Of a stretch of DNA of 64,000 nucleotides, positions 1-19,778 are shown one piece after another. Every line of letters starts with the position of its first letter. The first letter of the stretch is position 1. The notes under the pieces were generated by a model that saw only the letters and a list, made by a program, of their open reading frames with translations, searched no databases and had not been told where the DNA came from. The position numbers and the translations under genes were made by a program. The DNA comes from Candidatus Paceibacter sp. (GTDB lineage: Bacteria > Patescibacteriota > Minisyncoccia > Phycocordibacterales > BOKC01). The stretch is taken from NCBI GenBank assembly GCA_020724885.1, contig DYGD01000002.1, forward strand, positions 3,038 through 67,037, in the 5' to 3' direction.

Positions 1-1135
1 TCCCCGATAAGAACAATTAATTCTCTGTGTCGCCACGGAGGTCGGACTATATCATTACCTCACTTTGAACTGTCGCAAAGAATACACTCTCGCAGGCGCC
101 TCATAAGACTCAATGGGTTGTTTGAGAAGCGCTTGCTTTTCAATAGAGGGCCAGAATTTAGACGTGTGCGTTATTTGCACACCGTCTATAAATCCGACAC
201 ACTCGTGAAATCTGCGTATATCTTTCTCGGTTTCTATTTTTACTTTGCCATCCCTTGTCACATTCCGAGCTGTGATGCCCAAAACGCGCAAAAGTTCGGC
301 ATATTCTTTCCGCAGCTGCGGATGTGCACACGCAAGGTACACGCCGCGAATCACCCATTGGGTACCGCCATTCGTGCCTTTACGTCGCGCAACGTAGAGA
401 TTCACTCCTCCGTCGCAACTGAATGCTGCTTTCAGGAAATCTGACGCAACGTCGTGTTGCAGAAGTTCCTGAATCGGCAGATGAGCATCGGTGTGCTCGC
501 CGTTGCGACGCAAAGTCCGGAATGTCCCGAACCTTTTTGTGAATGCGTCTCTCGCTTCTTTAGAATTGACGATTGCGCGATAAAGTCCGTCGCTGGTTTT
601 GCCAAGACGAACGCGAGACGCCGGCAGTGCGAAACACTGCATCATGCATTCTCGGAATATCGCGACGAGTCGCTCCGATTTATTGCTGAAGTAGAACCGC
701 CAACTGCTTTTGCCTTTCGGTGAAAGACAGCCATCGGTATATAGAAGCCCGATTAATATTGCTGTTGCTTGATTCATTGTGAGGTATTCGGCGTATAGTC
801 TCTGAGGATCCTCTTATATGCTAGATAATGTGGGGAACCGGTGTTCCCCAAAAGGTCAGGTTCGGGGCTGATTGATTTTACAGCTACCCCGCAACGTCGG
901 TGAGGTGATCAACCCCTCACACATGGTCATCCCATAGCGCGATGCCCGCACGCCTTGCCATTTCGCTCTGCAGGAGCTACTTTGACTTTTTTACGAACCC
1001 GACCATTATCTAACACACAAAAGTTTCCTGCTGATTGTCCGCACCTGTAACATTTTCACTAACATAATAATTATATCATGTTTAGTAGTTCAGGATTCTC
1101 GGATGTTCCAGCATATAGCCGAATTTACACTCTGA
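1..1135 (-). mobile_element. Intron-like insertion in 16S rRNA (probably group I) carrying a LAGLIDADG ORF; extends past window start
   Basis: 16S homology ends at ~1136. Downstream sequence is not rRNA-like and contains an HE ORF; 3' boundary not in window. Confidence 0.6.
55..777 (-). CDS. LAGLIDADG homing endonuclease (double-motif), intron-encoded in 16S
   Basis: Motifs LIGLLYTDGCL and LKAAFSCDGGV. GC-rich relative to the surrounding genome. Confidence 0.8.
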   Translation of the reverse strand: MNQATAILIGLLYTDGCLSPKGKSSWRFYFSNKSERLVAIFRECMMQCFALPASRVRLGKTSDGLYRAIVNSKEARDAFTKRFGTFRTLRRNGEHTDAHLPIQELLQHDVASDFLKAAFSCDGGVNLYVARRKGTNGGTQWVIRGVYLACAHPQLRKEYAELLRVLGITARNVTRDGKVKIETEKDIRRFHECVGFIDGVQITHTSKFWPSIEKQALLKQPIESYEAPARVYSLRQFKVR

Positions 1136-2210
1136 TGTCGCCATCAGAGGGGACCAGATGCTTGATCCCGTTCGCTACCCACGCTTTCGTGTCTCAGCGT
1201 CAGGAATGCGCCAGTGTACTGCCTTCGCATTTGGTGTTCCCCTAGATATCAACGGATTTCACCCCTACACCTAGAGTTCCGTACACCTCTCGCACCCTCT
1301 AGTCCTGCCGTTTCTCCCGCGCATCTTCGGTTAAGCCGAAGGATTTTACAGGAGACTAACAGAACCGCCTACACACCCTTTACGCCCAATAATTCCGGAT
1401 AACGCTTGGGGCCTCTGTATTACCGCTACTGCTGGCACAGAGTTAGTAGCCCCTTATTCTTCGGGTACTATCAATAAACTTTCTCCCCGACAAAAGGTTT
1501 TTACGTCCCTAAGGACTTCATCAACCACGCGGCGTCGCTCCGTCAGGCTTTCGCCCATTGCGGAAGATTCTCGACTGCGGCCTCCCGTAGGAGTATGGTC
1601 CGTGTCTCAGTACCATCGGTGGGGGTCAGGCTCTCACCTCCCCTAGCCGTCATCGCCTTGGTAGGCCGTTACCCTACCAACTAGCTGATAGCCCGCAGGC
1701 CGCTCCCATAGCGTTCGAAAACTTTGGTATTGCTACAACATCGGGGATTACCCCGCCTTTCGGCGAGCTATACCCGACTATGGGGTGCGTACCTACGTGT
1801 TACTACCTCGTCTGCCGGTTGCCCGTTACCGGGCCCCCTTGACTTGCATGCCTTATCCACGCCGCCAGCGTTCATCCTGAGCTAGGATCAAACTCTTAAT
1901 GAAAATGTTAGAAATTTCCGAAGGAAATTTATTTACATTTTCTTGACCCGCTTAAGTTTTCACGAAGTGAAAATTTTGGCGGGTAATATGTCCACCAAAC
2001 TTTTTGTTTGCACAAAAACTTAGGCGGACAAGAACGGAACAAAACAAAGGATAACATTACCGCGCTTGCGCGCGGAATTTTTAATTCCCAATTCCTAATT
2101 TCTAAATTTGTTCCTAGCTTTTTTGGAATTTTTTTGACTAAACTTGCACTTATTTTTTGAATACATTCTCTATTTTTTGAACATTTCAAATTGTCAAAGA
2201 ACACATCCGG

Positions 2211-2277
2211 TAGTGAGTTTTGGCATCAGTTGAGCGAAGCTCAACTATGTGCTAAAGCACAATGCCAAAATCTACTA
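2211..2277 (-). ncRNA. Structured stem-loop in 16S leader (tagtgagttttggcat ... atgccaaaatctacta) enclosing ttgagcGAAGctcaa hairpin; member of a recurrent hairpin family
   Basis: Inverted repeat read directly from sequence. Lies between the predicted 16S promoter and the mature 5' end. Shares the cacaatgccaaa core with elements at 16078..16221 and 18655..18797. Confidence 0.5.
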
Positions 2278-2309
2278 ACCGGACACACCCTCTTTAAAGA
2301 GGTGGTACT

Positions 2310-2337
2310 AGTATAGACGAAAGGAAATTTGTGTCAA
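2310..2337 (-). promoter_or_regulatory. Sigma70-like promoter for 16S rRNA (TTGACA - 16 nt - TATACT on minus strand)
   Basis: Reverse complement of 2332..2337 is TTGACA and of 2310..2315 is TATACT, with 16-nt spacing. Located ~400 nt upstream of the 16S 5' end on the same strand. Confidence 0.55.
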
Positions 2338-2346
2338 CCCCGACCG

Positions 2347-2371
2347 TGCCGCAAGGCGGCACGGCAAACTC
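2347..2371 (-). terminator. GC hairpin (gtgccgc AAG gcggcac) upstream of 16S promoter, within secF-16S intergenic
   Basis: 9-bp perfect stem seen in sequence; role as terminator of secDF transcription is inferred. Confidence 0.3.
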
Positions 2372-2826
2372 TAAATTCTAATCTCTAAACTCTAAACAAG
2401 TTCAAAGCTCAAAATTCAAAAAGAAAAAACCGCCTAGTTCGGAAGCTGGCGGTCGGGGTCGGAGGTATTTCCACATTCGAGACATCGGTCGGTAATTCCT
2501 CGCAGGTCGTAGCCGCAGGTGAGACAATGGCCAAGCTCTCTCCGACGTACCGTTTGCTAACGTTCTAATTCGAATGAGCAGACCAACGTGACTAAGAGTG
2601 TCGGAAACCCTTAGATTGAAATAAGGACTTGCGATGTCGTTAATTTAGTAAATTAGTAAAAAATATATCAACACTCTTACGACTCAAGATCCAAATGACG
2701 GAGATCGCACCTCCGTCATTTTATAAAATTTAGAAAAGATCTTTCCCCGAAAGCACTTTTTCGCTTTTAGCGAAAAATGCTCGGGCAAGCAATTTTTGCT
2801 ATGCAAAAATTGCTTTAGCCTAAACC

Positions 2827-3756
2827 CTAGTGGCTAGCTTTCTTCCCCATCACCACCAGAAGCGGGCTGGCCAAGAAAATAGAAGAATAAGTTCCGGCAA
2901 TAACGCCAACCATCAAAACCAGGGCAAAATTCCTGGTTACTTCGCCACCAATAAAATAAAGCATCACTAGAACCAGAAAAGTGGTTAGAGAGGTGTTTAT
3001 GGACCTAACGAATGTCTGACCCAAGCTCCGGCCAACTGTTTCCCCAAAATTCTCTTTTGTATGAAGTTCTTGATTTTTTCTTAAATTTTCCCTAACCCTA
3101 TCAAAAACAATAATCGTATCATTGATAGAATAGCCCAAGATTGCCAAAAGCGCCATAACAAACAAGGCGTCAACTTCAGCGCCAATCAAAAACCCCATGA
3201 CTGCAAATATCCCGACCGGAATTATTATATCGTGAGCCAGAGCCAAAATCGCCACCAGACCGTAAATCCAAGAAGAAACAGGTTTGGAAACCGTTCTAAA
3301 AGAAAACGCGATAAAGAGGATTATAGCGATCAACGACAACCCTATGGCAATCCATGCCTTTTTTTTCAACTCCTCGCCGACAATCGGACCGACAAAGTTA
3401 AATCTCTCCTCAACCGCCTCAAACCTACCACCCAAAGACATCGCTTCAAGCAAAACTTCTTTGCCCTTTTCGTCAATCGGAGGAGTTCTCAGGATAAAAC
3501 TTCCATGATCGGAAGACCTCAAGCTGAATTCTCCGATATTCCGTTCCCTTAAAGCCAACCTCAACTCATCAAAACTCGGTGTCTCGCCAACAAAACTTAC
3601 TTCCAATAAAGACCCGCCTCGGAAATCAATTCCAAAATTAAGCCCAAAGTAGATGACAGAAAAGACAGAGGCCAGAACAGCAATCATCGAAATCAAGAAG
3701 AATATTTTTTTGTATTTTATGACAAACATATTTTTACATCCTAGGCCCGCTACCAA
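2827..3756 (-). CDS. secF: Protein-export membrane protein SecF
   Basis: GIDFRGGSLLEVSF motif, multi-TM, follows secD. Confidence 0.9.
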   Translation of the reverse strand: MVAGLGCKNMFVIKYKKIFFLISMIAVLASVFSVIYFGLNFGIDFRGGSLLEVSFVGETPSFDELRLALRERNIGEFSLRSSDHGSFILRTPPIDEKGKEVLLEAMSLGGRFEAVEERFNFVGPIVGEELKKKAWIAIGLSLIAIILFIAFSFRTVSKPVSSWIYGLVAILALAHDIIIPVGIFAVMGFLIGAEVDALFVMALLAILGYSINDTIIVFDRVRENLRKNQELHTKENFGETVGRSLGQTFVRSINTSLTTFLVLVMLYFIGGEVTRNFALVLMVGVIAGTYSSIFLASPLLVVMGKKASH

Positions 3757-5017
3757 ACAAAAAATTTCCTTTTGTTTTTTCGCTTACAACTGAAAGCAGA
3801 AAAGTCCTAGTTACAAGAATGGCTGAAAGCATACTTACTAAAACCCCGATTCCAAAAATCAAAGCGAATCCCTTAATCAGTGAACTGCCAAACCAAAAAA
3901 GAATAATAGCGATAATAACGCTAGAAATATTGCTGTCACGAATTGAAAACCACGCCCTCTTGAATCCTGATTTGATTGAATCACCCAAATTTTTGCCGGC
4001 TTTTAATTCCTCCTTCATCCTCTCGAATATTAAAATGTTTGCGTCAACCGCCATGCCAATGGAAAGAATAAAACCGGCGATACCGGCCGCCGTTATAGTA
4101 ACCGGAATAAACTTAAACAAAGCCAGCATTACTAAAACATAGACAGACAAAGCCAAAATAGCCAAAACTCCAGGTAAGCGATACCAAAAAATGAGAAACG
4201 CGACGACCAAAACAAATCCCCAAAAAGCCGCCTGGACACCGTCTTGGAGGATTTTTTCTCCAAGCGATGGTCCGACACTTTGAGTTGAAACAAGCTCAAT
4301 CGGCACCGGCAAAGCCCCAAAATTCAAATCCCTGACTAATTCCCTAGCTTCTATCGGCGTAAAACCGCCAGAAATTTGGGCTCGCCCATCTCTAATTTCT
4401 TCCCTGATAACTGGCGCTGAAATCACCTCCCCATCAAGGAAAATCGCCAGAATCCGTCCCACATTTTCTTTCGTAATTTTGGAGAACAATTCTCTCCCCT
4501 CCGGATTAAAGGACAGAAGTACCACAGGATCATTTTTGACTTGATCAAAATCCAGAGTTGATCTTTCTAAAAGCCGACCCGTCAAACCGGTATCTTCAAA
4601 GATAATTTCTCCCGAATCCTCCAGGGTGCCCACCGGCGCTAGTTTAAATTCCAGAAGCGGGGTCCTACCGATCATCGCTACCGCTTCTTTTAAGTCAGTA
4701 ACCCCGGGTAATTCCACGATTAATCTCTCGGACTCGCCAACCAAACCACCACTTTCAACTTGGACTATTGGTTCCGAAACACCGAAAATGTTCACCCGCC
4801 GCTCAATTACCTCACGCAAAGAATTCATGGCCCCAGAAATCTCACCTCTTTCCAAACCAGTAGTATCCGCCTCAAAAACCAAATGACTGCCACCGCTAAG
4901 ATCCAAACCATATCTGAAAGGAAATTGAGAATGTTCTGTCTCTGTGCGCTGCACAAAAAGCAGAATTATAACTGCCAAAATTACAATAAAAACCGCTGAG
5001 ATTCGGTACTTCAACAT
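3734..5017 (-). CDS. secD: Protein-export membrane protein SecD
   Basis: GLDLSGGSHLVFEAD motif, periplasmic domain plus 6 TM C-terminal, overlaps secF start. Confidence 0.9.
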   Translation of the reverse strand: MLKYRISAVFIVILAVIILLFVQRTETEHSQFPFRYGLDLSGGSHLVFEADTTGLERGEISGAMNSLREVIERRVNIFGVSEPIVQVESGGLVGESERLIVELPGVTDLKEAVAMIGRTPLLEFKLAPVGTLEDSGEIIFEDTGLTGRLLERSTLDFDQVKNDPVVLLSFNPEGRELFSKITKENVGRILAIFLDGEVISAPVIREEIRDGRAQISGGFTPIEARELVRDLNFGALPVPIELVSTQSVGPSLGEKILQDGVQAAFWGFVLVVAFLIFWYRLPGVLAILALSVYVLVMLALFKFIPVTITAAGIAGFILSIGMAVDANILIFERMKEELKAGKNLGDSIKSGFKRAWFSIRDSNISSVIIAIILFWFGSSLIKGFALIFGIGVLVSMLSAILVTRTFLLSVVSEKTKGNFLFGSGPRM

Positions 5018-5069
5018 AAAGTTAGAGGTACTTATAGCATAACCGAGATTAAATCACAAATTTTTTTAA

Positions 5070-5969
5070 TTACAAATACGCCCTCTTCAGCTCTTCAATC
5101 GCTTCCTCCATCTTAACTTCTGGAGACCAGCCCAAAAGCTCAAACGCCCTGGAATTGTCGGCCAAGGTATCATGCGGTTCAAGTCTGGGTGGAATATATT
5201 CCGTCGGTCCACCAATAAACTCAGCAATCTTATTTATAGAAAAATTTCTACCCGACCCAATATTCAAAACTTCTCCTTGTCCGACCTTTTGACTTTCCAC
5301 GGCTAAGAGGTTAGCTCTGACAACATCATTTACATGGGTAAAATCTCTAGTTTGAGTGCCATCACCGGTAATTGTCATAGGTTTGCCTTCTTGACGCTGT
5401 TTCAAAAACCTCGCGATAACTAAAGCGTAGGCGCCCTCTAAACTAGCCCTAGTACCATAGACGTTAAAATATCTTAAAGAAACGGTCTGCAGACCATAAA
5501 CTGAACTCCAGAGCTGACAATAAAGCTCACCTACATATTTTTGCAAACCATAAGGGCTTTTGGGGCTCGCCGACATTTCTTCCTTGAGTGGCATCACCGG
5601 CTGATCGCCGTAAACCGAACTGGAAGCGGAATACACAAACCTCTCCACTCCAGCATCTTTTGAAGCTACCAGGACATTTAAAGTCCCGCCAGCATTTACC
5701 TCGTTTGTCTCCACCGGGTTTTCGATTGAGTATTGAACCCTTGGTCGAGCCGCTAGGTGAAAAACATATTTAGCGCCAACAAAAATGGACCTGATTGATT
5801 CTAAATCGCGAATATCCAATTTATGAAAGATGGCCTTAGGATTCAAATTTTCTTTTTTACCGCCAGAAAGGTCATCAATGACATTAACTTCAAATCCCCT
5901 ATCTATAAGAGCATCCACTAAATGAGAACCGATAAATCCGGCGCCGCCGGTAACCACTGCTTTCTTCAT
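5070..5969 (-). CDS. NAD-dependent epimerase/dehydratase (UDP-sugar 4-epimerase-like)
   Basis: N-terminal GGAGFIGSHLVDAL Rossmann motif, YxxxK-type SDR extended family. Confidence 0.8.
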   Translation of the reverse strand: MKKAVVTGGAGFIGSHLVDALIDRGFEVNVIDDLSGGKKENLNPKAIFHKLDIRDLESIRSIFVGAKYVFHLAARPRVQYSIENPVETNEVNAGGTLNVLVASKDAGVERFVYSASSSVYGDQPVMPLKEEMSASPKSPYGLQKYVGELYCQLWSSVYGLQTVSLRYFNVYGTRASLEGAYALVIARFLKQRQEGKPMTITGDGTQTRDFTHVNDVVRANLLAVESQKVGQGEVLNIGSGRNFSINKIAEFIGGPTEYIPPRLEPHDTLADNSRAFELLGWSPEVKMEEAIEELKRAYL

Positions 5970-5995
5970 TTTATTTTTTCTTTAATTAAAAAATT

Positions 5996-7321
5996 CTACA
6001 CGCCGTTCGTTATCACTAACGCCTTTAGTGTCTTGAGGCCGATTTTTAAATCAAGCATCAAAGACCGATTCTTGATGTAGTAGAGATCGTAGGAAAGCTT
6101 CGTTTTGGTCTCATCGTAGTTTGGGTCAAACTTCGGCGGATTACGTTGATACAGCTGGGCCCAGCCGGAAAGCCCGGGTTTTATAATATGACGGACATTA
6201 TAATAAGGGACTTTCTTCTCATAAAGTCCAGCAATCTCCGGAATCTCCGGTCTAGGACCTATTAGTGACAAATCACCCTTCAACACATTCCACAATTGGG
6301 GAAGTTCGTCAATTCTTGTCCGCCGTATTAATTTACCGACCATAGTGATTCTTTTGGGTTCTGCGACTGTCATTGACCTGAATTTTACAACCTTAAAAAT
6401 TTTATTGTTTCGACCAACCCTGTTCTGGACAAAAAATAAAGGTCCGCCATCATCCAGCTTGATAGCGATAAAAACAAACGGATAAAATATAAGCGAAAAT
6501 ATACCCAAGGGTAGCGTCGAAACTATATCTATCGTCCTCTTCAAAAAATCAAAAGTTGAGCTGTGGGTCTTTGATATATTTTCAAGAAACCAGTTGTATC
6601 TTAGGAGCGAAAGCGGCACCCGATCAAAAATATCTTCGTAAATTTTATGCATATCTATAAACCTGACTTTCGAAAAAATAAGATTGTAAAAATGGGACAG
6701 GATCGGCTCAACCTTCTCGCTTCTCAAATCAATCGCAATAACTGAAATCTCTTCGGAATAAATTGTCTTCAAAACCTCTTCTTTAAAATCTAAACCCTCA
6801 ATTTCATCCAAATCAACTGACGAAATAAATTGGATCCCATAACGATTATTACTGTTAACCTCTGACCTGAGCTCTTTCATCTCCTCGCCACTACCAACAA
6901 TCATCGCTTTCTGCCTCTTTTGCGGGGTGAAAAAATTCTGCCCCCTCACTCTCCAAAAAAGAATCATAAGAAAAGAAACCGCCAAGTAGATGAACAGGTT
7001 GGTCTTCGGAGTGATGCCAAAGTATGGTATGAAATAAAAGAAGACGATGGCAATTAGAGTATTGATGATTTGGGCATTCAGAATCATACTGGGAAGCCGA
7101 CTCTGGAAAATCAAAGTATGCTTCTCATACAAACCAGCAATAAAGAAAACCAGTAGCCAAACGGCAAAAAGTATGGAAAATGGCTCCAAGTGGTTTAATA
7201 ACAGCTCCCTATTAGGCAGGCCTTGAGACCGAATTAGAAGCATTAGCCAAAGAGAAACTAGGAATATAAAAAGATCCCCCGCGAATAGAAAAAAAGCGTC
7301 TCTTTTACCAAAAAAAGCCAT
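5996..7321 (-). CDS. Polyprenyl-phosphate sugar phosphotransferase (WbaP/WcaJ-like bacterial sugar transferase)
   Basis: N-terminal TM segments; C-terminal ELPQLWNVLKGDLSLIGPRPE sugar-transferase signature. Confidence 0.8.
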   Translation of the reverse strand: MAFFGKRDAFFLFAGDLFIFLVSLWLMLLIRSQGLPNRELLLNHLEPFSILFAVWLLVFFIAGLYEKHTLIFQSRLPSMILNAQIINTLIAIVFFYFIPYFGITPKTNLFIYLAVSFLMILFWRVRGQNFFTPQKRQKAMIVGSGEEMKELRSEVNSNNRYGIQFISSVDLDEIEGLDFKEEVLKTIYSEEISVIAIDLRSEKVEPILSHFYNLIFSKVRFIDMHKIYEDIFDRVPLSLLRYNWFLENISKTHSSTFDFLKRTIDIVSTLPLGIFSLIFYPFVFIAIKLDDGGPLFFVQNRVGRNNKIFKVVKFRSMTVAEPKRITMVGKLIRRTRIDELPQLWNVLKGDLSLIGPRPEIPEIAGLYEKKVPYYNVRHIIKPGLSGWAQLYQRNPPKFDPNYDETKTKLSYDLYYIKNRSLMLDLKIGLKTLKALVITNGV

Positions 7322-7380
7322 ATATTTATAACTATAGTAGAAAAAAGCCCCGAATTGTCAAATATGCTAGGATAAAAGCA

Positions 7381-8574
7381 ATGGTGAACAAAAAAATCCT
7401 ATATATAATCACTAAAGCTGAACCATTCGGCGGCGCCCAGAGATATGTTTTTGATTTGGCAACTAATTTGCCAAAAGAACAATTTCAAGCGGTGGTAACT
7501 TTAGGAGAAGGCAAAACCTTAGAAGAAAAATTACAGAAAGAGGGGGTCAGAACAATCCACCTTAAAAACTCTCAAAGAAACATCAGCCCCCTCAAGGACT
7601 TTTTGCTCTTTTTTGAACTGCTGAAAATTTATAGACGAGAAAAGCCGGATGTTATCCACCTCAACAGCTCCAAAGTCGGTTTCCTCGGCTCCCTCGCCGC
7701 CCAAACTTATTCCCTATACCCTAAACCCCATACCCTAAACCCTAAAATAATTTTCACCGCTCATGGCTGGGCTTTCAACGACAGCCGATTTTTTTTGTCA
7801 AAAATATTCTGGAAATTTCTGCAGTGGCTAACCGTACTTTTAGCTGACCAAACAATCGCGGTTTCAGAAAAAACTAAAAATAATATGAACTGGTCTGGAG
7901 CGAGCGATAAAATCAAAGTTGTTTATAACGGTCTGCCCTCCTTGAATTTTTTGGAAAAAACAGAAGCGCGAATCGAGTTGTCTAAGAAAGACAGACGGTT
8001 AGAAAATATTCCGAAAGACAAAATCTGGATTGGAACAGTTTCCGAATTGCACAGAAACAAAGGCCTGGATTTAATGATTGAGGCATTATCAAAAATCAAA
8101 AACGAGAAGGCCAATTGGGTGTTTATAGTCTGTGGCGAAGGTGAAGAACGAGAGAAGTTAAACCAATTAATTCACCAAAAAGAAATGGGGAGCAAAATTT
8201 TTTTGGTCGGTTTGGTTAAAAATGCCGCCACCTATCTGAAAGCCCTTGATATTTTTACCCTGACTTCGCGAACGGAAGGCCTGCCTTATGCTCTCTTGGA
8301 GGCGGGAGCGGCCGGTCTACCGACAATTGCTTCCAACGTCGGTGGCATACCGGAAGTCATACAGCATGGTAAAAACGGGCTACTTTTTGAAAGAGAAGAT
8401 GTGGGCGAGCTAAAGAGGCAACTAGAAGACACCCTCGGAGATGAAGGAAGAGTGAGTCTTTTCGGAGCCAGTTTGCAAAAAAGTATAGCGGAGAAATTTT
8501 GTCTAGGTAATATGTTAAAATTAACAGAAAGTATTTATTGCTTTAAACACCCACAAAATGGAAGAGGAAAATAA
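7381..8574 (+). CDS. Glycosyltransferase family 4 (GT-B)
   Basis: EGLPYALLEAGAAGLPTIASNVGGIPEV motif typical of GT4. Confidence 0.8.
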   Translation: MVNKKILYIITKAEPFGGAQRYVFDLATNLPKEQFQAVVTLGEGKTLEEKLQKEGVRTIHLKNSQRNISPLKDFLLFFELLKIYRREKPDVIHLNSSKVGFLGSLAAQTYSLYPKPHTLNPKIIFTAHGWAFNDSRFFLSKIFWKFLQWLTVLLADQTIAVSEKTKNNMNWSGASDKIKVVYNGLPSLNFLEKTEARIELSKKDRRLENIPKDKIWIGTVSELHRNKGLDLMIEALSKIKNEKANWVFIVCGEGEEREKLNQLIHQKEMGSKIFLVGLVKNAATYLKALDIFTLTSRTEGLPYALLEAGAAGLPTIASNVGGIPEVIQHGKNGLLFEREDVGELKRQLEDTLGDEGRVSLFGASLQKSIAEKFCLGNMLKLTESIYCFKHPQNGRGK

Positions 8575-8764
8575 AGTTGAATTCTTGGAAGAAGAGGAAA
8601 TAATAAACGAAAAAAGAGGAGTCAGAAAAGCGGCTAGCGCTATGGCTGCGTGGCTTATAAAAAAAAGGATTGCAAGGGATGAAAAGACGGCCAACAAAAT
8701 CTTAGTCGCGATAATAATCGCCGCTTTTTTACTAACCGGTTACATACTGATAAAACAATTCTAA
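8558..8764 (+). CDS. Small hypothetical membrane protein (acidic N-term, one C-terminal TM)
   Basis: ORF only; weak RBS; overlaps GT4 stop. Confidence 0.3.
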   Translation: MEEENKVEFLEEEEIINEKRGVRKAASAMAAWLIKKRIARDEKTANKILVAIIIAAFLLTGYILIKQF

Positions 8765-8786
8765 GATGAAACGATCTAACCAGAAG

Positions 8787-9929: not shown

Positions 9930-9932
9930 ATT

Positions 9933-11318: not shown

Positions 11319-11351
11319 ATAAAAAGAATTATATCAAAAAAAGTCTCGTCT

Positions 11352-11462
11352 GGGTCTTGAGCGCTTTGTGTTGGCGACTAGCTACTCTCCCCTTGCGAGT
11401 ACCATCGCCACTACTGTGCTTAACTTCCGAGTTCGGAATGGAATCGGGTGTACCCACAGCGT
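11352..11462 (-). rRNA. rrf: 5S rRNA
   Basis: Minus-strand sequence CCGATTCCATTCCGAACTCGGAAGTTAAGCACAGTAGTGGCGATGGTACTCGCAAGGGGAGAGTAG matches the 5S consensus. Confidence 0.85.
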
Positions 11463-11852
11463 TTAATCACCAACACAAAAAACTCAAGATTCCAAGAACA
11501 AAAACAGGCAAAACTTTGATTGCATAAAAGAGAGCAAAACCTTGCGATTTTCAAATTTCCCGATGAGATTGATTTATTAGTACGCCTCGGCTCAACACAT
11601 TACTGTGCTTACACCTGGCGCCTATCAACGTGATCATCTCTCACGAATCTTAATGATTCCTAATCTTGGGGTGGGCTTCCCTCTTAGATGCTTTCAGAGG
11701 TTATCCCTTCCGAACTTAGCTACCCAGCGGTGCTCCTGGCGGAACAGCTGGTAGACCAGAGGTTCGTTCCTCGAGGTCCTCTCGTACTATCGAGAACTCC
11801 CCTCAAGAATCAACGCCTGCAGTAGATAGGAGACCAACCTGTCTCACGCAAA

Positions 11853-12160
11853 AGTAGCTCACTAGGCGCTAGGCTTTGGACCTTAGGATCTAGGAACACC
11901 GCCGTTACCGGCGGGATCGGACGATACACTCGCGGTCAATCCGCGGTTGGTTTGTCGTCTCTACAAGGATTTTACTCCTCTCGGTGTTGTCCTTCTAAGG
12001 ATTCCACCGATAACCCCAACTTGTCACTGAATTAGATTCAGTGCCGCCGTGATTTGATTGGTTTCTATCTCTATTCGTAGACGAAAAGTTCGATTACGTC
12101 GTTATGAGCGGATTCAGACGGTACTTATACCGATACTTGACAAAATCTATTTTTATCAGT
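11853..12160 (-). mobile_element. ORF-less intron-like insertion (~305 nt) in 23S near E. coli site ~2585-2593
   Basis: Exon reads GCTGGGTTCAGACCGT [insert] CGTGAGACAGGTTGG versus contiguous E. coli GCTGGGTTTAGAACGTCGTGAGACAGTTCGG. Confidence 0.6.
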
Positions 12161-12289
12161 ATAACTACGGTCTGAACCCAGCTCGCGTACCTTTTTAATT
12201 GGCGAACAGCCAAACCCTTGGAAGCTTCTCCACCTCCAGGATAAGGTGAGCCGACCACTTTCAATCCCCATGTTGCCATGGGAGCAGAC

Positions 12290-13140
12290 TATACCTTTGC
12301 TTATATCCTAACTATAAGCACCAGCGTGTTATGGCAATGTTTTATCAAATTTAATTGAGGCATTTGCCATCTGTTCACTTAAGAACAAGTCGTTACGGGG
12401 CAATACAACCAATCTTGTATTCCATCGGATGGACGATGTATGGTTTTATAAGATTAATCATTTTGAGAGTTTCGGATTTATTTGCATACATCCGAAATCC
12501 TTTGTCACGATCCTTATGGTGAACCATTTGAATACCAAATTTTTTATAAATAGCATTTTCAAGAATTTTTATTTCCTCTAGCACAAAAGAATAAGTGCTG
12601 ATATCAATAATCCCTTTGTTAAAGGATCCGTCGTCCATAATCCATACTGCCATAGATTGAGGATTGAGATCGACTCCGATATCTTTTGGAATTATTTTCC
12701 TACCAACCCTATATCCATCCCCAACATAAAACCTATTGTAGATTTTTGTTAATAATGGATGTCTCACTGTCCTAAACCACCAAGATTTTCGATATTTACT
12801 TCCATTTTCATCATATCGATAACTTATCTTTGGTTCAGTTAGTACCAGGTCTTTCAATACAGAATACTTATACTCTGTATATTCTTTTTGAGCTAATCCC
12901 TGTTCTATTTTGAAGTTAGCATTTACTGCTCCCTTCCCCATTCTCATTGTTCCATCCCCAAGCAAACAACCCACTAAAAGTGAAAGTTGCTCGTCAGTCA
13001 GAAACATTTTTTCTTTAACGGGAATTAAATCCTTGTGCCAATATTTTGTTGCATAGCTTCCCACGGTGTTGACCATACTATAACGCGAATTATAACATGG
13101 CTTTCTCCGTTATGAGCTGATTTAATGTGCATGAAAAATC
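12290..13140 (-). mobile_element. Intron in 23S (near E. coli ~2500, after GGCACCTCGAT) carrying a LAGLIDADG ORF
   Basis: Exon AACAGGCTGGTTCCGCCTAAGAGTCCATATCGACGGCGGAGTTCGGCACCTCGAT is interrupted and resumes at TCGGCTCACC ~12285. Confidence 0.65.
12393..13076 (-). CDS. LAGLIDADG homing endonuclease (intron-encoded)
   Basis: Motifs LLVGCLLGDGTM and AVWIMDDGSF. Confidence 0.8.
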   Translation of the reverse strand: MVNTVGSYATKYWHKDLIPVKEKMFLTDEQLSLLVGCLLGDGTMRMGKGAVNANFKIEQGLAQKEYTEYKYSVLKDLVLTEPKISYRYDENGSKYRKSWWFRTVRHPLLTKIYNRFYVGDGYRVGRKIIPKDIGVDLNPQSMAVWIMDDGSFNKGIIDISTYSFVLEEIKILENAIYKKFGIQMVHHKDRDKGFRMYANKSETLKMINLIKPYIVHPMEYKIGCIAP

Positions 13141-13289
13141 ATACACACGAGAGAATTGTTCGTATTCTCCCCCTCGACATTCGGTATCTATCGAGGTGCC
13201 GAACTCCGCCGTCGATATGGACTCTTAGGCGGAACCAGCCTGTTCATTGTTTTAGCTGGTGAATAGACTATATCATCACCCCGCCTTGG

Positions 13290-14170
13290 CGGGGGACGGC
13301 GTATTAGTATAAATTCTTGTTCGATAGAAATTTATACTCCATTCACAAAAAGTGAATGAGTCGTTACGGGGTCAAAGAGGTGTTTGATTCTCCTAATTTG
13401 TATTGCATTGAAGGTATAACATATTCTCGAATTAGTTCGTGGAGCTTTTTTGTTTCGTTCACTCCAAAAAATAATGCGTAACCCTTCTCTTTTTTGTCGT
13501 AAATTTTTGGTTTTAGGTCAAAATTTTCGACTATTGCATTTTCTAACAATGAAGACTCTTTTTGGGATACTCTGCCGAGATAAATATAGCTAGATTTATC
13601 TCTCAAGTAGTAGTATCCGTCATCCATATACCAAACCGCCAAAGCCAATGGAGCAGTTAATAATTCGGAAATATTTTTCGGCACTTTCTTTTTGCCATCT
13701 TCGTAGAAAATATTTCTCCATTTGCCGATCTCTGGCGAAGCATTGGACTGCCATCGCCAATATCCGTATTGCTTTCTGGTAATCGGATGAATTCTTTCTA
13801 GATGAGACGGTTTTCCTTGGAAAAGGCGCGGGAATTGACTTCCCTTCCAGATTAAATAATCTTTCTGCTTTTCTCCCTGCTCAAATCTAATTCTCGCGTT
13901 TTGAGAACCAGTTTTTTGCAGAAACGCGTCTCCCAACACAGAACCTATTATTATAGATTCCTGCCTTTTGGTTAATTTCATTGTGTTTACATTTTATCAC
14001 CTCTCGACTTCCCACGGGATTGTGCACTCTAAAACTCTTTTGTAAGAGAGACCTGTGCGTTTCCCCCGTTATAAGCCGTTCTTATTCCTGCTCTTGTGGA
14101 TCAAGAAAACAGGAACGCAAGATTTAATCTCGCTTCTCCGCAGATTACTCTGCGGGAGGACAACAAACGC
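13290..14170 (-). mobile_element. Intron in 23S (near E. coli ~2449, after CCCCGGGGA) carrying a LAGLIDADG ORF
   Basis: Exon ...GGATAAAAGCTACCCCGGGGA at ~14171-14200; exon resumes at AACAGGCTGG ~13250. Confidence 0.65.
13364..13981 (-). CDS. LAGLIDADG homing endonuclease (intron-encoded)
   Basis: Motifs IIIGSVLGDAFL and AVWYMDDGYY. Confidence 0.8.
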   Translation of the reverse strand: MKLTKRQESIIIGSVLGDAFLQKTGSQNARIRFEQGEKQKDYLIWKGSQFPRLFQGKPSHLERIHPITRKQYGYWRWQSNASPEIGKWRNIFYEDGKKKVPKNISELLTAPLALAVWYMDDGYYYLRDKSSYIYLGRVSQKESSLLENAIVENFDLKPKIYDKKEKGYALFFGVNETKKLHELIREYVIPSMQYKLGESNTSLTP

Positions 14171-14363
14171 CTTATTTCAGGCGTCATCCCCGGGGTAGCT
14201 TTTATCCGATAATCTTTGGCCGCATCTAAAGCGCGCCAGCGGTTCACTTAGCCCTGCTTTCGCATCTGCTTGAGACGTACCTCTCACAGTTAAGCCAGCT
14301 TATGCCTATACACTATCGGCACGGTTTCCATTCGCGCCTAGCTGACCTTAATGGACTCCTCCG

Positions 14364-14996
14364 TTACTTTTTAGGCAATGTGTTACCCAATTTATATTTC
14401 ATAGAAGGAAGAATGTGCGGCTTAATAAGTTCCTTGAACTTTTTGGCTGACTGAGATTGTATATACAATCTCCAATACTTCCCTTTTTGCTTATGAAGTG
14501 ATGTTTGAAGATCAAACTTATTCTTTAAGATACTCTGAATGCCTTCTAACTCATCTCTACCGTATCCAAGCGTGTGTATTACATATGTTTGATGTCGAGT
14601 AGATTTGAGCGAACCATCATCCATAAACCAGATCGCCAAGCTTAGAGGAGTAAACAACTTCTCAACCACTGTTGGAATAATTTTCTTACCTTCTTGATAA
14701 AAAATCCTTCCAAAACTTCTGAATGCTTCGTGAGAATATGTTCTCACTCCTACATACACCTTTCCATTTTTAACCTTTGTGTATGGTGTGCTTGGTATCC
14801 ATGATTTTAACTCTCGGTAAAGCCATACCAAATATTCATTTTGAGCACCACAGTGTTCAATCTTCAATCTATATGTCTCACCTTTATCCTGAGTCTCAAG
14901 ATGACCGTCTCCAAGTAAAGTGCCAACGATTATTTCTTGCTGGCGCTTCGTCAAGACTAAGCTCTTCTTGAGTTCGCGGATAGCTTTAGTATTCAT
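14364..14996 (-). CDS. LAGLIDADG homing endonuclease (intron-encoded; stop codon lies ~10 nt inside the downstream 23S exon)
   Basis: Motifs IIVGTLLGDGHL and AIWFMDDGSL. Last codons cct aaa aag taa overlap exon sequence CCUAAAAAGUAACGGAGG. Confidence 0.8.
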   Translation of the reverse strand: MNTKAIRELKKSLVLTKRQQEIIVGTLLGDGHLETQDKGETYRLKIEHCGAQNEYLVWLYRELKSWIPSTPYTKVKNGKVYVGVRTYSHEAFRSFGRIFYQEGKKIIPTVVEKLFTPLSLAIWFMDDGSLKSTRHQTYVIHTLGYGRDELEGIQSILKNKFDLQTSLHKQKGKYWRLYIQSQSAKKFKELIKPHILPSMKYKLGNTLPKK

Positions 14997-15355
14997 CGGG
15001 TTCTTGTTTTCACAAGACTCACTGTCGCCAGTGAGATCGGACTATATCTTCATCCTTAATTATAAAGGATGGTTGGTGTTTAGTCTCTACGGGTGTTTAT
15101 GTGCTGGATAGTGAGGGGGAGCGTTAACTGGTAACGCTCCCCCTAGTGAACCCGCCAACATGGTATTTGCCGTAGCATGGAGGACGGGATCCACTATTCA
15201 ACACACAAACTTCCCTCGGAATTGTCTCTTTACAGAGAGTTTTTCCGATATGACCAACTTTTTCCGCCCCGATTCACATCGGGGGGTCCCCCTAATTTGT
15301 TTTTTTCGGAGTCGGAGTAACTCCATGAGGCGCCTGATTTCAAGACACGAAAAAT
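14376..15355 (-). mobile_element. Intron in 23S (domain V region ~E. coli 2250s) carrying a LAGLIDADG ORF; contains a 13-bp GC hairpin (gggggagcgttaac/gttaacgctcccc)
   Basis: Exon GTGGGGCGCTTTCCTTC at ~15356-15372; exon resumes at CCTAAAAAGTAACGGAGGAG ~14376. Boundaries approximate. Confidence 0.55.
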
Positions 15356-15689
15356 CATGTCCTGAAGGAAAGCGCCCCACTTAAACTGCCCACCAGATAA
15401 TGTCCCTTGCCGTTTTTGCCGACGAGGTTAGAACATATCCTTTCACAGAGTGGTATTTCACTGGCGACTCCATGCCGACCGAAACCGGCACTTCAAAGTC
15501 TCCCACCTATGCTACGCAGTAAAAAAATAAGCTCAATATCAAGTTGCAGTAAAGCTCCCGGGGTCTTTTCGTCTAACTGCAGGTAACCGGCATCTTCACC
15601 GGTATTGTATTTTCACCGAGCAAGTCCCCGAGACAGTTGCCCACTCGTTACGCCATTCGTGCACGTCTCTAATTAAGAGACAAGGAATT

Positions 15690-15900
15690 ACGCTCTTCTA
15701 TCCCTTTAACAGAAGGACCATGTCTTCATCTCTGCTTATTAAGCAGAGCGCACGGCGTATGGCCTCTCATATGAGCCGTGATTGGACTATTCTTGTGTCA
15801 CCACAAGAAAGGTAGCTTTCGCATAATTTATTTGTTTATCTCCATAACGATCCCAGTCCTTCTGATTCCCTTAAAAAGAGAATCAGAACCTTAGGATCGT
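15690..15900 (-). mobile_element. ORF-less intron-like insertion (~215 nt) at the classic 23S site 1917 (after CCUAAGGU)
   Basis: Exon GTCGGTCGTAACTATAACGATCCTAAGGT [insert] AGAAGAGCGTAATTCCTTGTC versus contiguous E. coli sequence. Confidence 0.6.
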
Positions 15901-16077
15901 TATAGTTACGACCGACATTCACCAGGGCTTATAACAATCACCAATACATCTTGCGACATATCAACGTCGTTACTTGACCTTCTGGCATTGGTCAGGCGTC
16001 ACCCCCTATACATCCTCTTGCGAGTTCGCAGGGAGCTGTGTTTTTGATAAACAGTCGGCAGGCATACTTTAGCTGCG

Positions 16078-16221
16078 GCCCCCGACACCAACTTTGGCAT
16101 CGTTGCATTGTGTGTTTTCGTAATTTTTGTCGCAATACTTCAGATTTTAAGTAAGAAATTATTACTTACTTTAATCTTTGGAGTTGCAACAAAAACACAA
16201 TGCCAAAGTTGGCGTCGGGGG
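16078..16221 (-). ncRNA. ~145-nt stem-loop insertion / intervening sequence in 23S (variable helix near E. coli ~1720-1750) closed by a 22-bp stem
   Basis: cccccgacaccaactttggcat ... atgccaaagttggcgtcggggg inverted repeat (one G-U); the closing stem and ~40 nt of loop are similar to the element at 18655..18797. Confidence 0.55.
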
Positions 16222-17501
16222 CAGGCCTTATTGCGAACTTACGGCCGCTTTTTTGCCGAGTTCCTTGGGGACCTCTCACTCGTTCGCCTTGGTCTTCTCG
16301 ACCTGACTACCTGTGTCGGTTTTGCGGTACGGTTTGAATCTGCTTAACCTTAGAAGTTTTTCTTGGAAGCGCGCTTTACAAAATTTGATCACCCGAAGGT
16401 TCACATTTTCGTTCTGCTTGGGTTTGTGCCTCCCGGATTTTCCTGGGAAACGCCCTCACAGCGCGAACATAAATCCAATAATATGCTTTGTATACTGCAC
16501 TCCGTCCCTCCATCGAAACAAATTCAAGTCACGGAATATTAACCGTGTGTCCATCACCTTCGGCTTTCGCCATCGGCTTAGGCCCGACTAACCCTTCCCT
16601 GATTATCATCGGGAAGGAAACCTTAGTCTTTCGGCGTCCCGGTTTCTCACCGGGATTGCGGTTACTTGTGCCAACATTCTTACTTCCACACGCTCCAGCA
16701 TGGGTTACCCCTTTGCCTTCAACGCAGAGTGGAATACTCTCCTACCACATGTCAATGCGAAGCACTGACACATCCTCAGTTTCGGTATCATGCTTGAGCC
16801 CCGATTATCTTTGGCGCAAAATCTCTGAATAAGTGAGCTGTTACGCTTTCTTTAAAGGATGGCTGCTTCTAAGCCAACCTCCTTATTGTCAGAGAAATCT
16901 TACAACCTTACGCGCACTTAGCATGAATTTAGGGACCTTAACTAGAGATCTGGGCTGTTTCCCTTTTGACCAATGGAGCTTAGCCCCCACAGTCTAACTG
17001 CCAGATTCTGGCTGCGAGTATTCGGAGTTTGATAGGTTTGACGAGGTTTCCCCCTATTCAAACCTTCCAGTGCTCTACCCCCCGCAGAAACATCTGACGC
17101 TAACCCTAAAGCTATTTCGGAGAGAACCAGCTATTACCAAGTTCGATTAGCTTTTCACTGCTTACCACAAGTCATCCGATGGAGTCGCACGACCAACCGG
17201 TTCGGGCCTCCGCACGCCTTTCGGCGCACTTCACCCTGCTCATGGCAAGATCACTTGGCTTCGGGTCTCATGTATACGACTATTATTTCGCGCTTTTAAC
17301 ACTCGGTTTCCCTGTGGCTCCACCCAGTCAAGGGCTTAGCCAGCCGCATACATAAACTCGTTGGCTCATTCTTCAATAGGCACGCCGTGATGGCTCCCCG
17401 CTTTTGAGTTGTAGAAAACTCTACTTCCCAAAAGTGGGGAGCCACTCCGACTCCTTGTAGGCATATGGTTTCAGGTCTATTTCACCGCCCTCACCGGGCT
17501 G

Positions 17502-17541
<40 letters not shown>

Positions 17542-18625
17542 TCTAACGATATTTAGCCTTACCGGTTAGTTCCGGCAGATTCACCCGAGCTATTGATGTC
17601 TCGAGTTACTCAAGAATAGCAACCAAGGAGTTTTTCTTGTTTTCGCCTACAGGGCTATCACCTCCTGGGGCTTCTCTTTCCAGAGAATTCGGCTAACAAA
17701 AAAATATTTTTTACTCCTCTGGCTAGGCCGTGTTGCTATCTTACAACCCCCCTCCCCAGTTTTGAATTATGGAAATTTCCATATCTCAAAACTGGGGAGG
17801 GGTTTGGGCTCTTTCCTTTTCGCTCGCCGCTACTAAGAAAATTCCTATTGGTCTCTTTTCCTCCGGGTACTGAAATGTTTTACTTCCCCGGGTTTGCATC
17901 TCGAACTGGTCGAGATTTCCGCCAAAAGCGGAAGGGTTTCCCCATTCGGACATCTCCGGATCAAAGGTTGCTAGGCACCTCCCCGAAGCATATCGCCGCC
18001 AAGCCGCGTCCTTCATCGCTCGTTAGAACCTAGGCATCCACCATACGCCCTTGAATTCCCATCAGGAAATTCAAAAACCGCTGTCAATGCGAAGCATTGA
18101 CCGCGGACACACGCAGACAGGACGCAGAAATACGCAGAAATCTAACTCGAAACCACATGGCTACGAATCAAGATTCTGCGACCTTCTGCGTTCGTTCTGC
18201 GATATTCTGCGGTCAGTGCTTCGCACTGACATTTTTGCTCTCTTTTATACAATCAATCTGCGCAAAGCGCAGATTTGCCTGTCCCGAAACCCTATCTTCC
18301 GAAAGAATTCCGGGATAATCTGTCTACAACAAATAAAGACCCCTCGACTACGCTCGGAGTAAACTCCTTAGTAATCAAAAGTTTTGTTGTGACAGGATTT
18401 TGTCTGCGATATCGGGCTATGCCCAACTCGCGGAACTTTTGTCAAACAACATTCCTTCATCCATTCTGGCTCTATCTTCCGGCCAAATTTCTGTTGTTTA
18501 ACAGAAATTTGGCCGAGAGACAAAAAAACCGCCTTTTAAGCGGATTTGACTATCACATAACGATAAAATCACCGTCTCCGCTTGAGTTTTGATATTAAAA
18601 AATTTATTAACATAACTTTATTCTA

Positions 18626-18653
18626 ATTATAGGAAACCGAAGAAAGAAGTCAA
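18626..18653 (-). promoter_or_regulatory. Sigma70-like promoter for 23S-5S transcript (TTGACT - 16 nt - TATAAT on minus strand)
   Basis: Reverse complement of 18648..18653 is TTGACT and of 18626..18631 is TATAAT, with 16-nt spacer, ~550 nt upstream of the 23S 5' end. The leader is rich in hairpins (gtcaatgcGAAGcattgac, gtcagtgcTTCGcactgac, atctgcgcAAAgcgcagat, ggccaaatttctgttGTTTaacagaaatttggcc). Confidence 0.55.
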
Positions 18654-18654
18654 G

Positions 18655-18797
18655 CCCCCGCACCTACTTTACCATCGTTGTGTTATGTTTTGAAAAATTT
18701 TTGTCGCACAACTTCAGAACAAGGTGAATAAATTTGTTCTGCTGGAATTCCCTAAATGCAACAAAACACAATGGCAAAGTAGGTGTGGAGGCAAGCC
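18655..18797 (-). repeat. Second copy of the 16078..16221 hairpin element, immediately upstream of the 23S promoter
   Basis: cacctactttaccatcgttgtgtt ... aacacaatggcaaagtaggtg inverted repeat. Internal tttttgtcgcacaacttcaga and gcaacaaaacacaatggcaaagt blocks align with 16120-16215. Confidence 0.55.
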
Positions 18798-18812
18798 CTT
18801 TCCCAGAAGAAA

Positions 18813-18833
18813 GCCCGGGGTATTACCCCGGGC
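18813..18833 (-). terminator. Hairpin gcccggggt-att-accccgggc followed by U-rich tract on minus strand; terminator of gene 18855..19553
   Basis: 9-bp GC stem, then ttctt after the stem on the minus strand. Confidence 0.5.
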
Positions 18834-18854
18834 CTCTCTGCCGGATTTAAGATA

Positions 18855-19553: not shown

Positions 19554-19778
19554 ATTTATCGTTTTTTGGGCTAGATTTCTCTAAGAGAAAGAGCCCTTTT
19601 GGATAATTACTGCAATCGCCAGTGCAGTACTTTGGTTAATAACTAATAAAAACTTGCTCAATCATCAAATTATTGAGCCAAATTACTTCAGTGCAATTTT
19701 AACATTTTAAAAGAGGGTAATAGAAAAAGGTGTGGATAACTTCCCATCCTTGCCGAATCCTTTTCTAGTATGAGCACC

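Follow-up and report, generated by a model that had tools for sequence, protein, structure and literature searches.

A probable mini-ORF and terminator switch ahead of the 23S gene in the predicted split rRNA units of a Paceibacteria genome

We analysed a 64,000-nucleotide stretch of contig DYGD01000002.1, assigned to Candidatus Paceibacter sp. (the window), in which the genes for 23S and 5S ribosomal RNA (rRNA) lie several kilobases away from the 16S rRNA gene. The window very probably belongs to a genome of the Paceibacteria (Parcubacteria; candidate phyla radiation (CPR)/Patescibacteria) with one set of rRNA genes, split into two transcription units that share a strand and have a promoter each. 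Downstream of the 23S-5S promoter lies a leader element in which a very short open reading frame (mini-ORF) runs into a potential terminator/antiterminator switch. This element recurs before the 23S genes of relatives, and we consider it likely to be a real conserved feature. Both unlinked rRNA genes and rRNA introns have already been published for this group, and the arrangement is of a known kind in a new lineage. By itself it is of low interest, and the leader element is the part that most deserves follow-up.

Rfam matches on the minus strand place pieces of large-subunit rRNA from 18050 to 11569, 5S rRNA at 11474-11369 (5S_rRNA, 77.7 bits) and small-subunit rRNA from 1903; Rfam finds no further rRNA gene and no tRNA gene within the 64-kb window. 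The 23S gene is upstream of the 5S gene, and 9,465 nt separate the end of the 5S gene (11369) from the start of the 16S gene (1903). A preliminary description of this DNA had placed the 16S gene about 9 kb from and downstream of 23S-5S, and had read the minus-strand order as 23S promoter, 23S, 5S, ten protein-coding genes, a second promoter and 16S. The spacing and the order, the latter as located by Rfam, agree with our analysis, but the interval contains seven ORFs rather than ten, one of which is on the plus strand. With a 5S-16S distance of 9,465 nt, the rRNA genes are unlinked in the sense of Brewer et al. (10.1101/705046). They also belong to class D of Lui et al. (2021, PMC8172020), being on the same strand and more than 2 kb apart with an opposite-strand gene between them.

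The genes between the two units were identified from the ORF list and Pfam matches. From the 5S side they encode a vWA protein (11318-9933, minus strand), RodA/FtsW (9929-8787, minus), a GT4 glycosyltransferase (7381-8574, plus), a Bac_transf sugar transferase (7321-5996, minus), a NAD-dependent epimerase (5969-5070, minus), SecD (5017-3734, minus) and SecF (3756-2827, minus). These seven cell-envelope and secretion genes are a conserved block that separates the two rRNA units. We compared the window with 80 RodA-anchored loci from Paceibacteria/Parcubacteria genomes of a species-level collection; these loci were searched with the rRNA exons and proteins of the window. The order MscS-23S-5S-vWA-RodA-GT4 (opposite strand)-Bac_transf-(sometimes epimerase)-SecD-SecF-16S is common to dozens of these genomes. 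The preliminary description had asked whether the arrangement is conserved in relatives, and it is: the 23S/5S genes are upstream on the same strand in 64 of the 66 loci that are informative in having enough upstream flank, and the 16S gene is downstream of SecF in 27 of the 37 loci whose downstream flank is long enough. GT4 runs opposite to the rest of the block in 66 of 66 relatives. Both ends of the block are on one contig in 21 loci, where the gap between 5S and 16S is 6.0-12.8 kb (median 9.7 kb), and in four relatives Rfam confirmed the order 23S-5S...16S on single contigs.

In the species-level collection, relatives of the window's RodA come exclusively from metagenome-assembled genomes of Parcubacteria/Paceibacteria, at 55-62% identity. 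The closest matches reach 62% identity in RodA and, in the 5' part of the 16S gene, about 85%, and the lineage appears to be without a close sequenced relative.

Each unit is preceded by a predicted sigma-70-type promoter. That of the 23S-5S unit (18626..18653, minus strand) consists of TTGACT (18653-18648), a 16-nt spacer and TATAAT (18631-18626), and that of the 16S unit (2310..2337, minus strand) of TTGACA (2337-2332), a 16-nt spacer and TATACT (2315-2310). Both match the consensus at 11 of the 12 hexamer positions, and the positions given for them in the preliminary description are exact. They are the sole 11/12 matches in our scan of positions 1-20000 for promoters of the sigma-70 type.

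For promoter conservation we counted matches in the 800 nt upstream of 27 16S genes and 23 23S genes of relatives. A match of at least 11/12 is present before 13 of the 27 16S genes and 13 of the 23 23S genes, the background being 2.5% for random 800-nt segments from the same loci and 1-2% for shuffled leaders. At a threshold of at least 10/12, a promoter is found upstream of 23S in 21 of 23 relatives, mostly at 200-560 nt, and upstream of 16S in 23 of 27, at 125-350 nt. The form that recurs before most of the 16S and 23S genes is TTGAC(T/A)-16/17-TATA(A/C)T. Conservation in relatives thus supports the earlier proposal that each rRNA unit has a promoter of its own, from which we infer that both promoters are active. 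The first unit would then run from the promoter at 18653-18626 through a leader of about 560 nt into 23S and 5S, and the second from the promoter at 2337-2310 through a leader of about 400 nt into 16S.

Both leaders contain a motif that resembles the boxA consensus: TGTTGTTTGACAA in the 23S leader (18439..18451, minus strand) and TGTTCTTTGACAA in the 16S leader (2191..2203, minus strand), each read from the sequence. In the 23S leaders of relatives, (U)UUGA(C/A)AA recurs 3' of the terminator described below, and in their 16S leaders a small conserved hairpin directly after the start site is followed by the boxA-like (C)UUUGA(A/C)AA. The presence of such motifs in both leaders suggests Nus-type antitermination. 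We also considered the boxA-like TTGACA as a second -35 hexamer and rejected it, because there is no -10 hexamer behind it in any relative. The flanks of the 23S gene can form a processing stem of about 25 bp, with a predicted energy of -38.8 kcal/mol compared with -18.1 +/- 3.6 for shuffled sequences. The 23S leader of the window, at 561 nt, is longer than those of most relatives, and its distal part (18083-18235, minus strand) contains the long inverted repeats GTCAGTGCGAAGCACTGAC and GTCAATGCTTCGCATTGAC, with CGCAGA-rich arms at 18210-18170 and 18140-18100.

Two alternative explanations of the arrangement have to be weighed. It could be an assembly artefact that fused two contigs, because short-read assemblies classically break or fuse at rRNA genes. 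Several related contigs indeed stop just past the MscS gene, among them the contig with the closest MscS homologue (92% identity), which ends 41 nt past the gene. However, many independent assemblies have the same order on one contig, two of these contigs being 562 kb and 523 kb long (L014 and L050), and published closed Paceibacteria genomes likewise have the 16S gene 6.5-16 kb from the 5S gene. The recurrence of the block across relatives excludes an assembly join for practical purposes, and we regard this explanation as extremely improbable. The remainder of the 16S gene, or a second assembly of the same DNA, was not recovered by an exact SecF protein match or by exact-DNA scans of metagenome contigs. 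Alternatively, 23S, 5S and 16S might all be co-transcribed from the promoter at 18653, leaving the site at 2337 unused. The gap between 5S and vWA is compatible with this idea in having no strong terminator, just a run of seven T (T7) and a weak hairpin. Nevertheless, GT4 lies on the opposite strand between the units, in the window as in 66 of 66 relatives, which makes one single transcript implausible. Furthermore, several hairpins and a terminator-like CCGCC-N13-GGCGG-T6 site follow SecF, and a near-consensus promoter, with a hairpin and boxA behind it, is kept before the 16S genes of relatives. Co-transcription is therefore very improbable.

The leader element begins almost immediately behind the 23S-5S promoter. 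The mini-ORF (18569..18613, minus strand) starts 12 nt past the -10 hexamer, with ATG at 18613-18611, encodes MLINFLISKLKRRR and ends with TGA at 18571-18569. Its last codons contain segment A (AAGCGG, 18583-18578), which opens the predicted terminator/antiterminator switch (18522..18583, minus strand). Segment A is followed by a variable inner hairpin, segment B (CCGCTT, 18543-18538), a short loop, segment C (AGGCGG, 18534-18529) and a T7 run (18528-18522). Paired with C, segment B is the 5' arm of a structure that, together with the U-run, has the form of a canonical intrinsic terminator; paired with A, it would be unavailable for that structure.

We compared 21 23S leaders from the -10 hexamer onward. 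All 21 have a start codon, ATG or in two leaders GTG, at 7-17 nt past the -10 hexamer, which opens an ORF of 8-15 codons. From the start codon to segment A, frame 0 contains no stop among 177 codons, whereas the other two frames contain 31 in 166 and 17 in 161, and in 21 of 21 leaders the frame-0 stop is placed between -2 and +15 nt relative to where segment A starts. Few columns are at least 90% conserved, and the U of this stop codon is one of them. The encoded peptides have nothing in common except K/R near the C terminus, residues that are dictated by the AAGCGG of segment A. The terminator is equally constant in position, ending 92-111 nt past the -10 hexamer in every leader; it consists of a GC-rich hairpin with a run of 5-8 U and is weakest in L020. 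No sigma-70 promoter matching at 10/12 or better is present between the terminator and the 23S gene in 20 of the 21 leaders, and the leader of the window has no second promoter there.

Predicted folds are consistent with two mutually exclusive pairings of segment B. For RNA cut before segment C, 20 of 21 leaders have B paired with A in their minimum-energy fold, and this pairing survives in the full-leader fold in 15 of 21. At a median of -16.2 kcal/mol, the hairpin from A to B exceeds the terminator hairpin (median -9.8) in stability. In 5000 of 5000 permutation trials the cognate A:B duplexes had a better energy than duplexes with permuted partners. The divergent leader L045 has all three segments altered (GGUGAC/GUCGCC/GGCGAC) and retains both pairings. 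A scan of 2.2 Mb with a composite motif gave 17 matches, all of them 215-487 nt upstream of a 23S gene, with none elsewhere or before 16S genes, and the element is also present in four further lineages that were reached via MscS homologues.

How might such an element work? We tentatively propose, giving the idea somewhat less than an even chance, that it is a translation-dependent terminator, or attenuator, of 23S-5S synthesis and would act in cis as a sensor of ribosomes. With no ribosome on the leader, A would pair with B as the RNA emerges and B would be blocked, so that polymerase would pass the U-run and boxA and transcribe 23S-5S; read-through would be the default. A free ribosome, by contrast, would start on the near-leaderless mini-ORF and, on reaching the stop codon, would cover A and part of the inner hairpin. 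With A covered, B would be free for C, the terminator would form and transcription of 23S-5S would be aborted. When translating ribosomes are scarce, the antiterminator would form by default and 23S-5S would be made. The net effect would be that translation of the leader lowers 23S-5S synthesis, a negative feedback from translational capacity. Our searches of Rfam 15 and of the searchable literature turned up no leader-peptide attenuator before an rRNA gene, and the leader element is apparently undescribed so far.

The proposed start of translation so close to the 5' end of the RNA has parallels elsewhere in the window. A Shine-Dalgarno-like motif (GGAG/GAGG/AGGA) is present upstream of just 5 of the 46 ORFs of at least 150 amino acids. 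In many genes an extended -10-like TGnTAnAAT precedes the ATG by only 6-10 nt, a spacing that implies mRNAs with a very short leader or none. The 16S genes of four relatives, read at L014:18048-18087, L006:12684-12723, L063:17463-17502 and L050:18621-18660, end in ...GGAGUAUUUCAAAU or ...GGAUUAUUUCAAUU and have no CCUCC anti-Shine-Dalgarno sequence. The scarcity of Shine-Dalgarno motifs and the -10 elements close to the ATG make the start context of the mini-ORF normal for this organism. For leaderless translation in Patescibacteria, a literature search yielded no paper. In the vWA gene, which begins 50 nt past the 5S gene (11318-11345), TGATATAAT lies 9 nt before the ATG.

The same observations could be read differently. 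The promoter, short ORF and strong intrinsic terminator resemble a complete mini transcription unit, and the element might be an independent tiny gene, for a peptide or an RNA of about 100 nt, with 23S-5S transcribed by unregulated leak-through or from a type of promoter that is invisible to our scan, which covered the sigma-70 type only. We think this unlikely. As noted above, all but one of the leaders have no second promoter of at least 10/12 between terminator and 23S; the peptide is unconserved apart from the K/R forced by segment A; the 5' arm of the terminator is always complementary to the end of the ORF, and naked RNA prefers that pairing; and in the 2.2-Mb scan the element occurs exclusively before 23S genes. 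Less likely still is a genuine A/B/C switch that responds to an RNA-binding factor (a ribosomal protein or a Nus factor) or to a ligand instead of a translating ribosome, the mini-ORF being incidental. There is precedent for protein-mediated attenuation in the leaders of ribosomal operons, for example that of B. subtilis rplJL (PMC4538822), and a hairpin followed by boxA is also the layout of rrn antitermination sites. On the other hand, an RNA-binding factor or ligand would most obviously bind the inner hairpin, whose length and sequence are free to vary; the reading frame is open in 21 of 21 leaders with its stop fixed beside segment A, and no Rfam family matches.

The preliminary description had missed the terminator and mini-ORF of the 23S leader, the truncation of the 16S gene at the window edge and the introns in the rRNA genes. 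We located the rRNA genes by Rfam and further aligned the 23S gene to E. coli rrlH (blastn) and to the intron-less 23S gene of the relative L064. On this basis the 23S gene (11556..18064, minus strand) is about 6.5 kb long and consists of six exons (18064-15888, 15694-15366, 14375-14186, 13244-13190, 12255-12167 and 11848-~11556, all minus strand). The five insertions between them, here called I1 to I5 and likewise on the minus strand, sum to 3,376 nt and are at classic group I intron sites. All five follow the group I rule of a U as the last nucleotide of the 5' exon and a G as the last nucleotide of the insert. If these insertions are introns they must be excised from the rRNA, and we predict that they are spliced.

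The insertions differ in how clearly they can be recognised. I2 (15365-14376, 990 nt, after E. coli 2262 (L2262)) is a group I intron by its Rfam Intron_gpI match (71.7 bits at 15367-15018) and encodes a LAGLIDADG_2 protein (14996-14364; E=1.8e-43, 148.8 bits); the frame of this endonuclease ORF stays open past the intron and closes after 12 nt of the 3' 23S exon (14364-14375, minus strand). I3 (14185-13245, 941 nt, after E. coli 2449 (L2449)) has no Intron_gpI match in Rfam, contains the exact core motif GATATAGTC (P7'-type) 30 nt from its 3' end and has a LAGLIDADG_2 ORF at 13981-13364 (E=7e-35, 120.9 bits). I4 (13189-12256, 934 nt, after E. coli 2504 (L2504)) combines a sub-threshold Intron_gpI match at 12396-12266 (20 bits, E=0.031) with a LAGLIDADG_2 ORF at 13076-12393 (E=3e-39, 135.1 bits). 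The two short insertions contain no ORF. I1 (15887-15695, 193 nt, after E. coli 1931 (L1931)) has a sub-threshold Intron_gpI match across the whole insert (17.7 bits, E=0.017), and I5 (12166-11849, 318 nt, after E. coli 2593 (L2593)) is of no recognised ribozyme type, its Intron_gpI search in Rfam giving no match, only noise.

The first exon of the 16S gene (1165..1903, minus strand, 739 nt) was found as Rfam SSU and corresponds to E. coli ~1-788, with E. coli 7-788 aligned by blastn to 1897-1165. It is followed, after U788, by a group I intron (1..1164, minus strand; Rfam Intron_gpI, 51.1 bits at 1174-23) with a LAGLIDADG_3 ORF at 777-55 (Pfam, E=1.4e-11, 44.9 bits). The 3'-exon sequence UAGAUACCC is absent before position 1, and the intron runs past the edge of the window. 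LAGLIDADG ORFs are thus encoded in four of the insertions (I2, I3, I4 and the 16S intron), all above the Pfam cut-offs of 25 bits for LAGLIDADG_2 and 22.5 bits for LAGLIDADG_3.

The 23S genes of relatives are between 3.06 and 6.55 kb long, and their intron content is therefore fluid. L014 has homologues of I1 and I5 of the window, the latter at the same site. Eight other loci (L002, L011, L013, L048, L053, L062, L066 and L068) have an insertion of 600-930 nt about 50-60 nt into the last 23S exon, at roughly E. coli 2650, which the window is without. An insert of about 125 nt in the window (16211-16087, minus strand), in the region of E. coli ~1710-1760, is missing in L064, L014 and L079. We rejected it as an intron, because it has terminal inverted repeats (CAACTTTGG...CCAAAGTTG) and resembles a helix expansion or intervening sequence (IVS).

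Several points weigh against the interpretation given here. The promoters, the introns and the attenuator are all predictions, as are translation of the mini-ORF and the direction in which the switch would act. With regard to the promoters, 34 promoter-like sites occur in positions 1-20000, a total no higher than in shuffled sequences. With regard to the rRNA genes, just two of the six insertions (I2 and the 16S intron) reach the Rfam threshold for group I, and the 16S gene is incomplete, only its 5' half being inside the window. The mini-ORF is not a uniform feature in its details: most mini-ORFs have a predicted 5' untranslated region of 2-10 nt and are not strictly leaderless, L088 has its stop shifted into the inner hairpin, and L086 and L087 have, relative to the closely related L088, an insertion of about 115 nt between promoter and ATG. 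On the same contigs as this last variant (L086:10900-11030), a Y1 transposase gene is found a few kilobases upstream. As for the switch, A and C are identical in sequence, so that the complementarity of A to B could partly be a by-product of this identity. Column covariation gave no help: an alignment of the whole leaders with MAFFT misaligned segment B and was dropped, and in a shorter MAFFT alignment covariation of A:B and B:C was no better than in shuffles, because the letters of the GCGG/CCGC core are nearly invariant. Covariation being uninformative, we relied on pairing in register, on the alignment-free duplex permutation and on the divergent L045. Lastly, the 16S unit has no counterpart of the leader element, which makes a simple model of whole-ribosome feedback asymmetric.

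The surroundings of the two units yielded some further observations. Between the SecF stop and the 16S promoter (2338-2826, minus strand) are 490 nt of non-coding sequence in which Rfam finds nothing. This gap contains two near-perfect 13-bp hairpins (about 2815-2745), an ACGGAG...CTCCGT hairpin (about 2715-2690) and, at about 2452-2415, the terminator-like CCGCC-N13-GGCGG-T6 already mentioned. A 91-amino-acid ORF at 2204-1929 was rejected as a gene, as it has no Pfam match and sits in the 16S leader. In the relative L014 a tRNA gene (L014:8035-8106) separates 23S from 5S. Upstream of the MscS-like gene, L10-L7/L12 are conserved, sometimes with a tuf-S10 cluster, and in some other lineages (L089 and L090) ribosomal-protein genes take the place of 23S on the downstream side of MscS. 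This suggests that the 23S unit lies inside or beside a ribosomal-protein neighbourhood.

The arrangement adds little to what is known, because unlinked and intron-laden rRNA genes are documented hallmarks of the CPR. In practical terms, split and intron-rich rRNA genes thwart both standard rRNA annotation and amplicon approaches of the 16S-ITS-23S type. If the proposed attenuator exists, the leader switch would be a simple mechanism for matching rRNA output to translational capacity and would offer a handle on subunit balance in organisms with split rRNA units. It would amount to hard-wired ribosome feedback on rRNA synthesis, in a lineage that has unlinked rRNA genes and does without Shine-Dalgarno pairing.

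In its gene arrangement the window resembles the unlinked rRNA genes described from the CPR. Unlinked rRNA genes are a clade-wide trait of Patescibacteria (Brewer et al., 10.1101/705046) and were found in 27 of 34 closed CPR genomes (Lui et al. 2021, PMC8172020); in many Paceibacteria 5S, at a distance of 6.5-16 kb, is closer to the 16S gene than 23S is (PMC8172020, S1 Table). As in these genomes, the 16S gene of the window is more than 1.5-2 kb away from 23S-5S, with an opposite-strand gene between them, and the rRNA genes are probably present in a single copy. The two papers give distances and classes, and apparently do not describe the gene block, the promoters, boxA or the leader element. 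Two independently promoted units with 23S and 5S together are likewise known from Buchnera, Wolbachia/Rickettsia, Thermus and Helicobacter (cited in PMC8172020). Units of that type, however, are usually tens to hundreds of kilobases apart, whereas those of the window are 9.5 kb apart, in a fixed order and separated by a conserved block.

The introns, too, are of the kind reported for the CPR, in which 48% of the 16S genes and 82% of the 23S genes contain insertions (Tsurumaki et al. 2024, PMC11270868). About half of these were recognised as group I, mostly with LAGLIDADG enzymes; LAGLIDADG_3 was confined to 16S genes, and sites 1931 and 2593 are among those named (PMC11270868). The insertions of the window are similarly clustered in the 3' third of the 23S gene, with LAGLIDADG_3 in the 16S gene, and nothing essential differs. 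The set in the window comprises S788, L1931, L2262, L2449, L2504 and L2593, and its 23S enzymes are LAGLIDADG_2, whereas LAGLIDADG_1 is commoner in the CPR.

The leader element has features of two well-known systems and coincides with neither. Like rrn antitermination sites (boxB hairpin-boxA-boxC; NusB/NusE), both leaders have a hairpin followed by a U-rich boxA-like motif (UGUUCUUUGACAA / UUUGAAAA) that is kept in relatives. Unlike at those sites, the hairpin of the 23S leader is a full predicted intrinsic terminator with U5-8, and because this terminator is upstream of boxA, a complex loaded at boxA could not suppress it. The closer likeness is to the trp/his/pyrBI attenuators and the attenuators of ribosomal-protein operons (S10/L4; rplJL, PMC4538822), which likewise have a short ORF close to the promoter, an intrinsic terminator and, overlapping the end of the ORF, an upstream pairing that excludes the terminator. 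The element differs from these in the start of its mini-ORF, which would be near-leaderless and in an organism without anti-Shine-Dalgarno sequence, and in having no fourth segment and no regulatory codon run. The latter places it outside the amino-acid-sensing subclass of attenuators. Unlike an amino-acid attenuator, the naked RNA of the leader element favours read-through, so that translation itself, and not starvation, would bring about termination, and what would be regulated is rRNA.

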